Shown here: positions 1,565 through 5,850 of the stretch, one piece after another | Layout: every line of letters begins with the position of its first letter | Position numbering within the stretch: the first letter of the stretch is position 1 | Position numbers and translations under genes: made by a program | DNA from: a virus | Taxonomy: Duplodnaviria; Heunggongvirae; Uroviricota; Caudoviricetes | DNA: 11,813 nucleotides | Virus record (IMG/VR): IMGVR_UViG_2869947659_000003 | Span: 1 to 11,813 of that record | Direction: 5' to 3' (one strand) | The notes under the pieces: model-generated | The model's database searches: none | What the model saw: only the letters and a program-made list of their open reading frames with translations | Told to the model about the DNA's origin: nothing

Positions 1565-1640
1565 GTGTCGTCGGGTCCTTCCTGGAATTATGGCCCGTTA
1601 CGGGGCGGCGACCTCGCGGTTTTTCGCTATTTATGAGCTT
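1565..1640 (+). other. Lambda-type cos site, copy 1 (cosQ-like ACGGGTCC-type segment plus cosN; 12-nt cohesive-end sequence GGGCGGCGACCT at 1603..1614)
   Basis: Sequence CGGGTCCTTCCTGG...GTTACGGGGCGGCGACCTCGCGGTTTTTCGCTATTTATGAGC closely matches the lambda genome termini as I recall them (right end ...ACGGGTCCTTTCCGG...GTTACG, left end GGGCGGCGACCTCGCGGGTTTTCGCTATTTATGAAAA). Confidence 0.8.
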
Positions 1641-1649
1641 TTTTAGAGG

Positions 1650-1831: not shown

Positions 1832-2272
1832 TTAACTTTGCTGTTCTGTAACGACTGATTGTTCCATGCTGGCACGGCAAACGCTTACGGCATGACGCCA
1901 CCCAGCCAGAAAGCCGGCCATTTTATTTCGCGCTTTGCTCACTTCTTCCGGTGAGTAGCCGTAAATCTGTAAACCTTCATCAAATCTATGTTCTGTTTCT
2001 TCACTGGAGTACTCGTCACGCTCAGATGAAAGCAGCCTGGCAACCATAATTTTTTCCAGCGCACTGGTTTCTACGTGATATCCAATGGCCTCAAGATGGC
2101 TTTTACCTGAAGACCAAAGCAATGTATGCCCGATGTGATAACCGCCGGACTTTCCGCGATCCGCATTAAGATACGGCATCCCTTGTTTGGTCCATGCGCG
2201 AATAGTGGTTCTGTTTACCTTGAAATGTTCAGCTATTTCCTGCTGACTTACAAAACAAGCCTTATTAATCAT
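1832..2272 (-). CDS. Nu1-like terminase small subunit homologue (N-terminal winged-helix cos-binding domain); candidate packaging-redirection protein
   Basis: N-terminus VSQQEIAEHFKVNRTTIRAWTKQGMPYLNADRGKSGG aligns with lambda Nu1 VNKKQLADIFGASIRTIQNWQEQGMPVLRGGGKG. Only 146 aa versus 181 aa for Nu1, with a divergent C-terminus. RBS GAGGT precedes the ATG; the gene sits about 90 bp downstream of cos copy 2, as in lambda. Confidence 0.8.
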   Translation of the reverse strand: MINKACFVSQQEIAEHFKVNRTTIRAWTKQGMPYLNADRGKSGGYHIGHTLLWSSGKSHLEAIGYHVETSALEKIMVARLLSSERDEYSSEETEHRFDEGLQIYGYSPEEVSKARNKMAGFLAGWRHAVSVCRASMEQSVVTEQQS

Positions 2273-2339: not shown

Positions 2340-2400
2340 TCATAAATAGCGAAAACCCGCGAGGTCGCCGCCCCGTAACGGCTCCATATGCCGGAAAGGA
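2340..2400 (-). other. Lambda-type cos site, copy 2 (cosQ-cosN; cohesive-end sequence reverse-complemented at 2362..2373), correctly oriented for the Nu1-like gene
   Basis: Minus strand reads ACGGGTCCTTTCCGGCATATGGAGCCGTTACG GGGCGGCGACCT CGCGGGTTTTCGCTATTTATGACG, near-identical to lambda cosQ/cosN. Confidence 0.85.
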
Positions 2401-2405
2401 CCCGT

Positions 2406-2430
2406 AAAAAAAAGCCGGATTTCTCCGGCC
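2406..2430 (-). terminator. Rho-independent terminator downstream of the capsid-like operon
   Basis: Stem GCCGGA / TCCGGC with 4-nt loop, followed on the minus strand by eight U residues. Confidence 0.7.
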
Positions 2431-2435
2431 TTGTC

Positions 2436-2849
2436 TCAGATGGTTTTCAGTATGCGATCGATGTCGCCGTCATCGCCCTGGTTTCTGCCATCGTATGCCA
2501 TGCCAGCTGATACGGCTTGCGGGCTGTGCATGTCCATAAAGTTTTCAAAGGCTGCGGTAAGCTCTGGTGCAACCTTTGGGCGCTCCTGCTCTATGGTCAT
2601 GTTCAGGATTTCACGAGCATTATCGACGCTAATACATGGCACGTTTGCCATTGCACGTAACAGCGGCTGATAGTCTTTATGCTCATGAAGCGCCATAATC
2701 GCATCAGCGCGCGGCTTGTCCTGCTCTTCCAGTTTGTTTAGTTGATATACGGCCTCATAGGTTGATAAACCTCTGTCAGCCATTGCCCGCGCTTCGGCTT
2801 TAAATTTACTCGCCAGCGGTAGCGTCATGATGCTTTCATTCGTTGCCAT
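2436..2849 (-). CDS. Hypothetical protein, 137 aa (last gene of the capsid-like operon)
   Basis: ORF with AGGGGGA Shine-Dalgarno, 12 nt downstream of the gpD-like gene. No recognisable family. Confidence 0.6.
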   Translation of the reverse strand: MATNESIMTLPLASKFKAEARAMADRGLSTYEAVYQLNKLEEQDKPRADAIMALHEHKDYQPLLRAMANVPCISVDNAREILNMTIEQERPKVAPELTAAFENFMDMHSPQAVSAGMAYDGRNQGDDGDIDRILKTI

Positions 2850-2861
2850 CGTTCCCCCTGC

Positions 2862-3197
2862 TTATCGGGCCAGCGGCTGAACGGATACGCCGGAACCCGC
2901 AAAGGCGGCGCATTTTTTCGCATCGGTGTCGACGCTCTCAGGCCAGTTAACGGCGGCAATATTGAATATCCCCGTCTTGTAACACTGTGCTGATTTCTGC
3001 TTTGACGTGTCCACAGGGTACGAGGTCAGATAAACAGCCTTGCCAGATTCCTTACCATCCCACGGCTTAAACTCGCCATTGTCCGCCAGCATCAGCGGGG
3101 TAAATTCCTGAATAACGCCAGCATCAGCGGCAAAATGTACCAGCGTCGTGGCGACCTGCTGACTGCCTGCAAATAACTCAATGTATGGAGTGTCCAT
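2862..3197 (-). CDS. Lambda gpD-like head decoration protein homologue
   Basis: TPLMLADNGEFKPWDG...YKTGIFNIAAVNWPESVDTDAKKCAAFAGSGVSV aligns with lambda gpD TPLMLDTSSRKLVAWDG...[35 protein letters not shown] (from memory). GGGGGA Shine-Dalgarno. Confidence 0.75.
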   Translation of the reverse strand: MDTPYIELFAGSQQVATTLVHFAADAGVIQEFTPLMLADNGEFKPWDGKESGKAVYLTSYPVDTSKQKSAQCYKTGIFNIAAVNWPESVDTDAKKCAAFAGSGVSVQPLAR

Positions 3198-3208
3198 AGA
3201 ATCCCCCG

Positions 3209-4264
3209 TTAACCAATTTTGACGGTAACAAATTTGCGAATATCTGCCGGAACCGGCTGCGGTGCGCTGTGCGTCTGCACGTACTCAATCGCCGGATCGC
3301 CGTCCTCAATCCAGTTTTTCGGGTAAAACATGTTTTGCGTTGCGCCTGTTCTTACTGCGTCCTGATCCATAATCGCACCATAGGCCACCAGCCCTTTATT
3401 GTTGGTGTTGCCCAGAACCAGCAAATCAGGCTCAAGGAAATATTTTTCTGTGCCGTCGCTGTCAGTGTATTTGCCGGAATAGACGATAAGGGCAATATCG
3501 CCCAGATAGCCTTTAAAGCTCACCACTTCGCCCAGGTTTTTACAGGCCAGCTCTGCGGCGGACTCTGAACCACGGGAAAGATCGTACAGCTCACGGAATT
3601 TTTTAAAGCTGCGTAACGTTCGCCATACCTCAGCGCCCATAATCATGACGTTTGCGGGGCAACCAGCCTGATCGGCGTATAGTTCGATATCATAGATTGG
3701 ATCGTGGGTTTCTTTGTCCTGCTCTGACCATTTTTTCCCGTCGGCCTGCTCTATGATGTTTTTTTCCGGTATCTTCCAGTCGATTTCATAGCGCTCTATG
3801 CCTTCGCCCTCAATGATGTTTTTTCCGGTCGTTACCGCATTTACCGCCAGCCATTCCACGCGCGCTTTAATGGCGTTTATCTGGCGGCGCATGTTGCCAG
3901 TAATCAGGCGCATACGGCGATAGGTAGGGTCGTTAAGCTGTGCCGGATCTTCTCCAGCCATGCGCATGATGGTTTTCGTTGGATCGATTTCGTGCTTTGG
4001 CTTCATGTAGCCAGGTTTAATCGTGCTGGTTTCGTACCCTTTATCGCGCTGAACCTGGCTACCCACCATAGGCGAACAAAACGCCGACATGGTGACTTCT
4101 TCAATGTCCAGGGTATCCAGCATGATGTTTTGCGTGCTGAATGTCGCCACGTTCGGGAAAAACAGCGTGGTAAACAGCGGACTGAATTTAAATTCCGCAA
4201 TATCCCCGCGATTCAGGTACGCAAAAAGCTGGTTAGTGTTAAGTACCATTGCTTTTACTGTCAT
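3209..4264 (-). CDS. Lambda gpE-like major capsid protein homologue
   Basis: Conserved blocks along the whole 351 aa shared with lambda gpE: EFKFSPLF, KPGYMKPKHE, DPTYRRMRLI, WSEQDKETHDP, WRTLRSFK, RGSESAAE, SFKGYLGDIALIVYSGKY, LVLGNT, FYPKNWIEDGDPA, QSAP. Start codon overlaps the stop of the upstream 68-aa ORF (TAATG). Confidence 0.9.
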   Translation of the reverse strand: MTVKAMVLNTNQLFAYLNRGDIAEFKFSPLFTTLFFPNVATFSTQNIMLDTLDIEEVTMSAFCSPMVGSQVQRDKGYETSTIKPGYMKPKHEIDPTKTIMRMAGEDPAQLNDPTYRRMRLITGNMRRQINAIKARVEWLAVNAVTTGKNIIEGEGIERYEIDWKIPEKNIIEQADGKKWSEQDKETHDPIYDIELYADQAGCPANVMIMGAEVWRTLRSFKKFRELYDLSRGSESAAELACKNLGEVVSFKGYLGDIALIVYSGKYTDSDGTEKYFLEPDLLVLGNTNNKGLVAYGAIMDQDAVRTGATQNMFYPKNWIEDGDPAIEYVQTHSAPQPVPADIRKFVTVKIG

Positions 4265-4470
4265 TATTCCCCCCCGTGAACCTGATTCATACCCAGCGCC
4301 GCGCGTAAATAGGCGCGTACCTGCCAGCCTGTTGACGGCTCAACCATCGCCAGCGGATCAAGTCCTGCCGCAATGCCTGCTTTTACGTTCTGCTGGTGGC
4401 GTTCCTTGAGCGCCTTCACGATGTCGGGGCTTATGTACACCGAAACACCGCCTTTTTTCTCTTCAGCCAT
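4264..4470 (-). CDS. Hypothetical protein, 68 aa (first gene of the capsid-like operon)
   Basis: AGAGGA Shine-Dalgarno upstream; translationally coupled to the gpE-like gene. No recognisable family. Confidence 0.5.
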   Translation of the reverse strand: MAEEKKGGVSVYISPDIVKALKERHQQNVKAGIAAGLDPLAMVEPSTGWQVRAYLRAALGMNQVHGGE

Positions 4471-4498
4471 AGTAAGAAATTCCTCTTTGACTTAAAAA

Positions 4499-4555
4499 AT
4501 CATAACTGGATGTTCATCCAGTTATGATTATAATCATGATCGCATTTTGTGCAAT
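4499..4555 (-). promoter_or_regulatory. Sigma70-like promoter for the capsid-like operon overlapped by a 30-bp perfect palindrome (candidate operator)
   Basis: Minus strand -35 TTGCAC (4549..4554), 16-bp spacer, -10 TATAAT (4527..4532). Palindrome ATCATAACTGGATG tt CATCCAGTTATGAT at 4499..4528 covers the predicted transcription start. Confidence 0.5.
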
Positions 4556-4633
4556 GATATTGAGTTGCGTTGCAAATTATGAAATGATTATCCCGATCAT
4601 GTGTGTCAGTGCACCAAAAAACCTCATATGCAA

Positions 4634-4672
4634 AAGCCCGATAACCCACCTCTGACCTTATCGGGCTTTTTT
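4634..4672 (+). terminator. Hairpin terminator (10-bp stem AGCCCGATAA / TTATCGGGCT, 13-nt loop, T-run)
   Basis: Seen directly; followed by TTTTTTAT on the plus strand. A weaker U-run follows on the minus strand, so it may act in both directions. Confidence 0.5.
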
Positions 4673-4770
4673 ATCTGCCTGCAAAGATGTTGAACAAAAA
4701 TTAACCACAACCATCATCTTTTTTGCATCAAAACAATTAAAAACAATAAATTACGCTCATGATGATGATG

Positions 4771-4847
4771 ACGATAAAATCACAAAAATGCGCTTTTTTC
4801 CGCGCCTCCCGCCCCGTGTTCAGGCCCACCCCGCCAGGAGGACCCGT
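4771..4847 (-). other. Degenerate third cos-like element (diverged duplicate of cos copy 2)
   Basis: Plus-strand 4771..4869 aligns with 2341..2430 over about 100 bp (…CCGCCCCGT…GGACCCGTAAAAAAGCCGGATTGCTCCGGC). The cohesive-end core is not intact (GGGCGGGAGG instead of GGGCGGCGACCT). Confidence 0.55.
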
Positions 4848-4869
4848 AAAAAAGCCGGATTGCTCCGGC
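4848..4869 (-). terminator. Rho-independent terminator downstream of ssb
   Basis: Stem GCCGGA / TCCGGC with loop, followed on the minus strand by six U residues; near-identical to the terminator at 2406..2430. Confidence 0.7.
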
Positions 4870-4885
4870 TTCTGTCACTCGTCGC

Positions 4886-5308
4886 TTAAAACGGTATGTT
4901 ATCCCCGTACGGATCATCATTCCCCGCCTGTTGTTTTGCCCTGTTCAGCGCGTCAGTAGCCTGGCCCTGTTGACCTTTTTTGCCGCCCAGTCGCGCCGTT
5001 CGCGCACTGATTACACTGTCTGCGATAACCTGCCAGCCCTGCCGCGTTTCCCCGTTCTGTCCGGTCCACTGGCTGACCTGCATCGTGCCGGATACGCTGG
5101 CAACGTCGCCTTTTTGATGTTTAGCCAGGAAGTCGGCCTGCTTACCAAATGCGATGACCGATAGCCATAACGTCGCCTGCCCATCCTGCGCCTGACTACA
5201 TGGCAACGATACCGCCATACGCGCCAGCGTCATCGGTGTGCCCTTGCTGGTCTGTTTTACCTGCGGGTCGTCCACCAGCCGCCCGTAAGCGGCTATCTGT
5301 GCTGTCAT
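4886..5308 (-). CDS. ssb: Single-stranded DNA-binding protein (SSB-like OB-fold protein with acidic C-terminal tail)
   Basis: OB-fold-like core (TLWLSVIAFGKQADFLAKHQKGDVASVSGTMQVSQWTGQNGETRQGWQVIADSV) resembling the E. coli SSB core, and a C-terminal tail ending DDPYGDNIPF (compare the SSB DDDIPF tip). Start overlaps the stop of the upstream ORF (ATGA). Confidence 0.7.
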   Translation of the reverse strand: MTAQIAAYGRLVDDPQVKQTSKGTPMTLARMAVSLPCSQAQDGQATLWLSVIAFGKQADFLAKHQKGDVASVSGTMQVSQWTGQNGETRQGWQVIADSVISARTARLGGKKGQQGQATDALNRAKQQAGNDDPYGDNIPF

Positions 5309-5562: not shown

Positions 5563-5610
5563 TTTTATTTTTACCCCCTCGTTTAAAAAGTTTTGAGTTG
5601 TGCCTCCCCT

Positions 5611-5837
5611 TGTCTACCTTATCTACCTTACTGGCTCTCATGCCAGTAATGGCGCGGCTTTCAGCGGGGTAGAGTGCTTTTATCCACTATCTACCCCGTA
5701 TCTACCTCCCTGTCTGATTCAGGTAAAATCAGGTAGAGAGGGTAGATAGTAGGTAGACAGTGAAAAAAGGCTGTCTACCTAAGTTAATATACTGAATTAA
5801 ATGTATTTTTCTTTACTCAGGTAGACAGGGTAGACAG
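5611..5837. repeat. Iteron array (candidate replication origin) with a DnaA-box-like site
   Basis: At least 11 copies of TCTACC / GGTAGA-containing 8-9-mers in both orientations (for example TGTCTACC 5611, TATCTACC 5620 and 5688, GGTAGAGAG 5732, GGTAGATAG 5741, GGTAGACAG 5752, 5820 and 5829, CTGTCTACC 5771). TTATCCACT at 5680..5688 is an 8/9 match to the DnaA box. Lies immediately 3' of the primase gene. Confidence 0.7.
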
Positions 5838-5850
5838 CCATTGCAAAAAA

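Follow-up and report, generated by a model that had tools for sequence, protein, structure and literature searches.

The DNA analysed here, a stretch of 11,813 nucleotides that we call the window, carries, besides two lambda-type cos sites, a third cos site, cos3, which lies between the replication genes and the capsid genes of a satellite island. Judging from its sequence, we consider it reasonably probable that cos3 is a complete cos of a second specificity, which was acquired as a discrete cassette and would enable packaging by a second group of helper phages without the island protein Rpp. That the site is actively used for packaging by such helpers seems to us somewhat on the likely side of even, and of its homology and anatomy, as read from the alignments described below, we are confident.

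[quoted passage not shown] It has the features of a cos PICI of this type: it is small, it carries int, alpA, pri-rep with an adjacent ori, rpp and cos, and it lacks terL and tail genes. All the island genes discussed here, which were annotated with Pfam and PHROGs, are on the minus strand (Table 1).

Table 1. Coordinates of features in the window, in island order (slashes in cosN mark the predicted nick positions).
Feature	Position	Strand	Details
int	11813-10584	-	First in island order
alpA-like gene, then icd-like gene	Between int and primase	-	
D5/P4-type primase	7599-5851	-	Iterons next, then an 85-aa gene
Iteron array	5600-5840		Repeats of GGTAGAC/GGTAGAT, some in each orientation; immediately behind the primase gene
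ssb	4886-5308	-	Final gene of the replication module; Pfam SSB, E = 1.7e-16
Terminator T1	4848-4875	-	Hairpin GCCGGAG-CAA-TCCGGC (4854-4869) and T6 run (4848-4853)
cos3 cassette (cosQ, cosN, cosB)	4673-4847	-	~175 bp; CFT073 has 7 nt (GCGCCCA) instead
cosQ of cos3	4839-4845	-	GGGTCCT, same as lambda cosQ, read from the sequence
cosN of cos3	4801-4816	-	CG/GGGCGGGAGGCG/CG; 12-nt cohesive-end equivalent 4803-4814, G1 at 4814
I2-like segment and R3 equivalent	4759-4800	-	TCATCATCATCAT at 4759-4771, +44 to +56 from G1
Remaining cosB of cos3	4683-4758	-	A/T-rich spacer, then inverted GATGATGG at 4711-4718 (+97 to +104)
Bidirectional hairpin terminator T2	4625-4677	Both	Inverted repeat; closes the cassette on the capsid side; also in CFT073
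Capsid module	2436-4470	-	68-aa gene, E-like major capsid protein, D-like decoration protein, 137-aa protein
Terminator and lambda-type cos	2341-2432	-	Terminator 2411-2432, cosQ 2397-2403, cosN 2362-2373, G1 2373
rpp-like gene	1832-2272	-	146 aa; Nu1-type winged-HTH N-terminus; followed by a 93-aa gene
Inverted lambda-type cos (published cos2)	1573-1643	+	Identified by inverted repeat, motif and literature

The iteron array is presumably the replication origin of the island. The capsid genes were recognised by their Pfam matches to Phage_cap_E (2e-52) and HDPD (2.5e-17), and PHROGs were also used. The last protein of this module (137 aa, 2436-2849) matches the C-terminal part of the head-maturation-protease family phrog_53 (E = 1.7e-10) and is named a head-tail connector in one RefSeq record. 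Upstream of the capsid-operon start lies a palindrome (4498-4529) with a 14-bp stem (AATCATAACTGGATGAACATCCAGTTATGATT) and an adjoining ATGATTATAATCAT; this region (4498-4545) is kept in CFT073 and looks like an operator. Just past the 93-aa gene, the island end is abutted by an IS3-family insertion sequence at 1-1222 (orfA 1157-855 and orfB 819-1, both on the minus strand), whose terminal sequence resembles IS600, and homology to the CFT073 island starts at 1222. The AT-rich stretch 1645-1835, which adjoins the inverted cos at its cosB end, contains repeated GGTTGTTGT motifs and an inverted repeat of 26 nt (1706-1731 / 1777-1802); it has no homology to the corresponding CFT073 segment, and both of its flanks are homologous. 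A search of Rfam gave zero matches anywhere in the window, and hence no known structured RNA there.

On the minus strand, the order of elements around cos3 is ssb, the T1 hairpin with its T6 run, the dinucleotide AC, cos3, the T2 hairpin and the promoter of the capsid operon. The T1 hairpin lies 16 nt past the ssb stop codon, and T1 ends 2 nt ahead of cosQ. By its predicted RNA fold (-22.6 kcal/mol, z = -3.29), T1 is a stable GC-rich hairpin directly followed by UUUUUU at the end of the ssb operon, as is typical of rho-independent terminators; the hairpin of the neighbouring cos copy folds at -19.2 kcal/mol, and z is about -3.3 for both. A simple consensus terminator scan listed this sister hairpin (2411-2432) and missed T1, in our reading because the extension of the T1 stem uses up the T-run. 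At least 119 IMG/VR stretches have the T1 hairpin at a module boundary. At the other border, T2 folds at -22.8 kcal/mol, and we propose that cos3 sits in a transcription-free slot between the replication-operon terminator T1 and T2 ahead of the capsid operon. The ORFs that overlap cos3 (4759-4959 on the plus strand and 4780-4920 on the minus strand) were taken as spurious.

The subsites of cos3 can be read against those of natural lambda-like phages, in which the 7-bp cosQ and the CGs flanking the nicks are conserved and cosN varies at positions 7-12 (PMC4669245, Feiss laboratory). In cos3, the exact cosQ heptamer lies upstream of cosN, and the gap from cosQ to G1 is 23 nt, compared with 22 nt in lambda. 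The ungapped context of cosN is ACA CG/GGGCGGGAGGCG/CG GAAAA in cos3 and TTA CG/GGGCGGCGACCT/CG CGGG in lambda; the left half GGGCGG and the CGs at the two nick positions, 12 nt apart, are the same, and positions 7, 8, 9, 10 and 12 differ. The block TCATCATCATCAT is a candidate TerS binding site, by analogy with the position of R3 in lambda and N15, and the inverted GATGATGG is possibly an R2 equivalent, the roles of R2 and IHF having been judged by eye. In the literature, we found no experimental definition of the R sites in the phage lineage with a DUF1441-type TerS. In every cos allele that we saw, with L004, L002 and L238 compared besides the window, the R3-equivalent block (~+44 to +65 from the cosN G1) is a trinucleotide repeat: cos3 and the Stx type have (TCA)4, the Rpp-dependent cos (about 2309-2319) has (ACC)3-4, the cdtI/Tritos type has (GGC)3, and another PICI type has CACCATCACCACC. 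These repeats may be a simple specificity code.

How is cos3 related to the two lambda-type cos copies? The preliminary description, made from the letters of the window, had taken 4771-4869 to be a diverged duplicate of 2341-2430. A scan of the window for the spaced motif GGGTCCT-N18-24-CGGGGCGG gave three occurrences, one on the plus strand (1573-1608) and two on the minus strand (2368-2403 and 4809-4845), and the motif was matched in none of 200 dinucleotide-preserving shuffles. Local alignment of 4771-4869 with 2341-2430 extends over 40 columns (36 identities, 2 mismatches and 2 gaps), and the two stretches share the hairpin, the T-run and ACGGGTCCT. Beyond cosQ, cos3 and its lambda-type neighbour align only over the 9-nt ACGGGGCGG, and 170 of 2000 shuffles score equally. 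When cos3 was aligned with the two lambda-type copies, significance was confined to the hairpin, the T-run and cosQ. Plain pairwise alignment was dropped as a sufficient test, and the spaced-motif test together with external phage homology decides the question. On these grounds, cos3 is not a recent diverged duplicate of the neighbouring cos. The feature is present at 4771-4869 and continues beyond it, to about 4673-4683.

The same description had regarded cos3 as a degenerate or pseudo-cos with a mutated cosN-like core. The core, GGGCGGGAGG, is instead a native allele of its phage lineage and not a mutated lambda cosN: because phages of the DUF1441 lineage carry the cores GGGCGGGCGGCG, GGGCGGGAGCGT or GGGCGGGAGCGG, that of the window falls within natural variation. 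Every recognisable cos subsite is present, the whole matches phage cos, and the differences concentrate outside the subsites, none of which fits degeneration. A further suggestion, that cos-plus-terminator blocks are recurrent module boundaries, is supported: in all operon-co-oriented cos copies of the window, CFT073, L002 and L004, the GC hairpin and T-run stop 2 nt short of cosQ.

The closest relatives of cos3 are found in phages. In Stx-converting lambda-like phages, the cos region occupies the interval from the lysis genes (Rz) to a DUF1441 terS with a gpA-like terL, and window positions 4683-4851/4852 are 87-91% identical to it over ~170 bp. Matches at this level were obtained with an O157:H7 Stx1 prophage, VT1-Sakai and eight Stx2 phages, and more remote matches include mEp460; in the prophage, the annotation of the matching cos region reads simply 'hypothetical protein'. 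When IMG/VR was scanned with cosQ and its spacer motif, 97 of the 122 matches were in phage context and 23 were in PICIs, and the phage-context matches have the orientation Rz-cos-DUF1441 terS-terL wherever the locus holds those genes, which places the phage homologues of cos3 in the interval between the lysis genes and terS-terL.

The cosB of cos3 is collinear with that of the Stx-type phages, and its core blocks are nearly identical. From I2 through R3, including TCATCATCATCAT, a single base, adjoining cosN, differs from Stx2_112808; the second cosB block, ATGATGGTTGTGGTT, is identical in the two, and the other differences between them are concentrated in the A/T-rich spacer that separates the blocks. 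The I2-R3 and ATGATGGTTGTGGTT blocks are conserved across the phage, PICI-proximal and PICI-distal sets. The exact GGGCGGGAGGCG occurs in none of the phage sets examined, the closest cores differing by one base or in length. The deposited records of cdtI and Tritos, phages with the same TerS family, start exactly at the equivalent of G1; a search for phage records with ends at the predicted cosN yielded these for the cdtI/Tritos allele and none for the exact Stx-type one. Of 5,426 complete E. coli genomes, 169 contain the window-type region. Among the matches listed, 6 of 7 window-type host genomes had no second closely similar cos of the kind that a resident prophage would supply, and a co-resident prophage with a similar cos is therefore not the rule.

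Is cos3 served by the island's own packaging protein? EcCICFT073 has two cos sites, of which cos1 is required for transfer and is recognised by an Rpp-TerS heterocomplex, and cos2 is dispensable, its deletion raising transfer (Fillol-Salom 2018, 2019). The functional PICI cos immediately precedes rpp, whose start codon is found near +102 (Murialdo & Feiss 2022). In the window, rpp starts at 2272, which is +102 from G1 (2373) of the minus-strand cos, and for this reason the cos at 2341-2432 is the published Rpp-dependent cos1; the earlier numbering was the reverse of that in the literature, its copy 2 being the published cos1 and its copy 1 the published cos2. Nothing comparable applies to cos3. 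It differs from the cosN of lambda, phi80 and 21 (GGGCGGCGACCT) at the five positions given above, T2 and the capsid operon come after it, where an Rpp-dependent cos would have rpp ~100 bp downstream, and at +44 to +56 it has TCATCATCATCAT and not the PICI-specific R3 ACCACCACCAC (+48 to +65 segment). The N-terminus of the Rpp-like protein has 33% identity to residues 3-44 of lambda Nu1 (E = 4e-6; phrog_57, TerS), and comparison of Rpp with the DUF1441 TerS revealed no detectable similarity. Because Rpp resembles Nu1 and not the DUF1441 TerS, cos3 is most likely Rpp-independent; that Rpp also serves cos3 was considered and set aside as unlikely.

Comparison with related islands indicates that cos3 occupies a polymorphic slot. 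T1 and T2 are shared by CFT073, where only a heptanucleotide separates them and a perC gene lies upstream of T1, and the resulting indel coincides almost exactly with the stretch homologous to phage cos. We surveyed the slot by scanning IMG/VR for the T1 hairpin. The CFT073-type arrangement (perC-T1-no cos-68aa-E) was found in 33 contexts and the window type (ssb-T1-...-68aa-E) in 22; among the latter, 18 have an intact cos, 3 have point mutations in cosQ and 1 is empty. The 18 intact sites comprise 11 with the cosN and R3 core of the window, 4 of the mEp460 type and 3 other variants. In islands with a ClpP-MCP fusion capsid gene, the slot holds other alleles: one, with R3 = GGCGGCGGCAGC (L004 and L083, behind the T1 hairpin), closely matches the cos of cdtI/Tritos. 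The E. coli island L130 has an mEp460-type cos behind the same T1, and the compared segment of its cosB is identical to that of mEp460. The existence of several alternative alleles, three of which closely match sequenced phage or prophage cos, suggests repeated replacement by intact sites and thus function over decay.

In about a dozen islands of the type ssb-T1-...-ClpP-MCP-93aa, cosQ is replaced by GTAGGTACT and cosN is kept. Because cosQ is required for termination and dispensable for initiation (PMC4669245), its loss may reflect either decay or selection against premature termination, and in these islands the termination signal could have been removed with the capacity for initiation retained. 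Together with the cosQ point mutations in 3 of 22 window-type copies, this loss in a sister type indicates that the constraint on the slot cos is not absolute. The island itself is a mosaic, its ssb and replication genes being 84-91% identical to those of CFT073 and its capsid module 96.7%, and in the related island L131 the replicase differs. L130 (E. coli VL7S7, NZ_CM177009.1) has in addition a hybrid distal cos at ~3435, in which a hairpin, cosQ and spacer of the lambda-PICI type are joined to an mEp460-type cosN (GGGCGGGAGCGGCGC), with a right side like that of the published cos2 of CFT073; what is left of rpp is a fragment, and an IS110-family element interrupts the primase. This hybrid looks like the product of a cos-cos rearrangement.

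The capsid module of the window lies between cos3 and the Rpp-dependent cos, two sites with the same orientation. A capsid module between two co-oriented cos sites is found in three island types with different capsid genes, the layout recurring in L002, L023 and L029 and in L004, L040 and L083. Two islands that lack the capsid module, L136 and L221, are collinear with L083 to either side of it. Diagnostic bases place their crossover between the cosQ-cosN spacer, which is of the proximal type, and position 12 of cosN, which is of the distal type. Such a junction would fit cos-to-cos packaging, and homologous recombination over the ~50 shared bp would leave the same one. The suggestion that modular recombination takes place at cos-terminator junctions gains support from these two islands and from CFT073, which lacks exactly cos3; the expectation that related islands would have or lack the module exactly at the repeats was borne out by L136 and L221. 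In the IMG/VR contigs L129, L023 and L055, ClpP-MCP fusion PICIs adjoin a phage terL with 99% identity to its Stx2_112808 counterpart. The PICI of L129 lies between phage terS and terL, embedded in the helper, and the R3 blocks of the PICI and phage cos are identical. That PICIs embedded beside a DUF1441-type terS/terL share the R3 block of that phage fits a pairing in which the helper cos is directly mimicked.

How might cos3 work? The second group of helpers would consist of Stx-converting and VT1-Sakai-type phages with a DUF1441 small terminase. During phage growth, the phage TerS would bind the phage-type cosB of cos3, the gpA-like TerL would nick CG/GGGCGGGAGGCG/CG, and island concatemers would be packaged toward the capsid module. 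No Rpp would be needed at this site; Rpp, matched to Nu1-type TerS, would serve the rpp-proximal cos for helpers of the lambda, phi80 and 21 types, in line with the published work. With two cos specificities, the island would carry packaging signals for two helper families. Since cos3 and the rpp-proximal cos are co-oriented around the capsid module, cos-to-cos events, either terminase cutting at two different cos or recombination between them, could delete or exchange the module. The same orientation also counts against this reading, in that a site 2.4 kb upstream of the main cos could bring premature termination and mismatched cohesive ends. It has been reported that an extra cos can lower lambda-mediated transfer (Fillol-Salom 2018, 2019).

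As a more tentative extension, which we put forward as a possibility and no firmer, the region behind the replication-module terminator of enterobacterial PICIs might be a hot-swappable cos slot, in which exchange of a ~175 bp cassette for the cos of any lambdoid lineage then present, kept beside an Rpp-dependent cos, switches or widens the helper range. Since slot and main cos enclose the capsid genes in direct orientation, terminase would drive turnover of the capsid module. Terminase that starts at one cos and stops at another, or that joins the ends of different molecules, would then bring about gain, loss and exchange of capsid modules and the capture of phage late DNA.

We weighed several other explanations. 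A rather unlikely one is that cos3 is a functionless scar of recombination or phage-DNA capture, which has stayed largely intact because it is recent. The island is clearly mosaic, copies with a mutated cosQ occur, and islands of the CFT073 type, with no cos3 in any of their 33 contexts, are fully mobile; EcCICFT073 transfers at high frequency without it (Fillol-Salom 2018, 2019). A scar, however, does not readily account for the variety of cos alleles in the slot, which number three or four at the least. Three closely match sequenced phage or prophage groups, two of these (mEp460 and cdtI/Tritos) being isolated phages, a pattern that implies repeated replacement and not decay. Moreover, the differences from the phages avoid cosQ, the left half of cosN and R3, and 18 of 22 window-type copies are intact. 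The terminator alone is a far poorer explanation still. Although pairwise alignment with the neighbouring cos is significant only over the hairpin, T-run and cosQ, the notion that the resemblance is a shared rho-independent terminator and the rest chance is already refuted by the threefold occurrence of a spaced motif matched in 0 of 200 shuffles and by the 87-91% identity with phage cos regions along 170 bp, and we give it practically no credence.

Two other readings accept cos3 as a recognised site and deny it productive packaging by a second helper. The preliminary description had raised the possibility of a decoy that is bound and left uncut, and such a site might titrate or misdirect the Stx-type terminase and lower phage yield. 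Satellites commonly interfere with helper packaging, as Rpp does in the EcCICFT073 family, and a phage-identical cosB would be expected to bind phage TerS. Nothing, though, points to a block on cleavage or separates cos3 from a cleavable cos: cosQ is intact, and an intact cosN with conserved CG flanks favours cutting over mere binding. Replicating concatemers with a complete cos would be packaged in the manner of cosmids, and interference would then be a by-product of packaging and not an alternative to it. We therefore rate a pure decoy as very unlikely. Slightly less probable again is that cos3 is an auxiliary termination site for a lambda-type terminase that began at the Rpp-dependent cos. 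The two sites are co-oriented, and termination needs cosQ, cosN and I2 and is independent of cosB specificity (PMC4669245). The I2 of cos3 is nevertheless unlike that of lambda, and of the 12 cohesive-end positions 5 would be mismatched, where a mismatch of 2 bases already costs a fourfold loss of yield (PMC4669245). An auxiliary terminator would also leave unexplained why a full phage cosB is retained and why the slot alleles track those of phages.

The second-specificity reading of cos3 can be set beside known systems. With cos1 of EcCICFT073, cos3 agrees in cosQ, in the left half of cosN and in the placing of a terminator ahead of cosQ, and it belongs to the same island family; it differs in being a third site, behind ssb and missing from CFT073, with no rpp behind it and with a right half of cosN and a whole cosB from a different phage lineage. 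The cosB of cos1 is PICI-specific and needs Rpp-TerS, whereas that of cos3 is the phage's own. With the cos of phages that have a DUF1441 TerS (VT1-Sakai, the Stx2_112808 group, mEp460, cdtI and Tritos), cos3 shares the order cosQ-cosN-cosB, the spacing and the logic of orientation. Unlike these, it lies in a satellite and not upstream of terS, it has a GC-rich terminator where the phages have an AT-rich palindrome before cosQ, the cassette ends ~65 nt short of the position of the phage terS start, and position 8 of cosN is A in cos3 and C in the phages.

Satellites that carry a near-copy of the helper cos and are packaged by the helper terminase are already known, as in P4 (with the cos of P2), SaPIbov5 and the HE-PICI 11capE, the last of which has 258 bp at 90% identity in common with the cos region of its helper; two cos sites are likewise known from EcCICFT073. 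In contrast to P4, SaPIbov5 and 11capE, cos3 coexists with an Rpp-dependent cos of another specificity and sits in a polymorphic slot that brackets capsid genes. When lambda carries a duplicated, co-oriented cos, as in Feiss laboratory constructs and cosmids, the intervening DNA is lost or kept according to where packaging starts and stops. The capsid-less island L136 resembles such a product, but it is a natural island, and terminase action and homologous recombination would both fit; in the window, moreover, the two cos sites have unlike cohesive ends. In the literature, we found no description of a third cos of other specificity in EcCICFT073-type islands, of a polymorphic cos slot behind a replication-module terminator, or of capsid modules flanked by cos with a deletion junction inside cosN, and nothing specific on the DUF1441-type cos or on mobilisation of PICIs by Stx phages.

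If the reading of a cos slot is true, it would answer a published question (Fillol-Salom et al.), namely why some PICIs carry several different cos sites. The extra cos sites would represent different phage specificity groups and not degenerate copies, and one satellite may use several helper families. The capsid module bracketed by cos sites, together with the deletion variant whose junction lies in cosN, suggests a simple route for the modular evolution of satellites. Because the second helper family would include Shiga-toxin-converting phages, the finding would also bear on the spread of these islands and their cargo among pathogenic E. coli.
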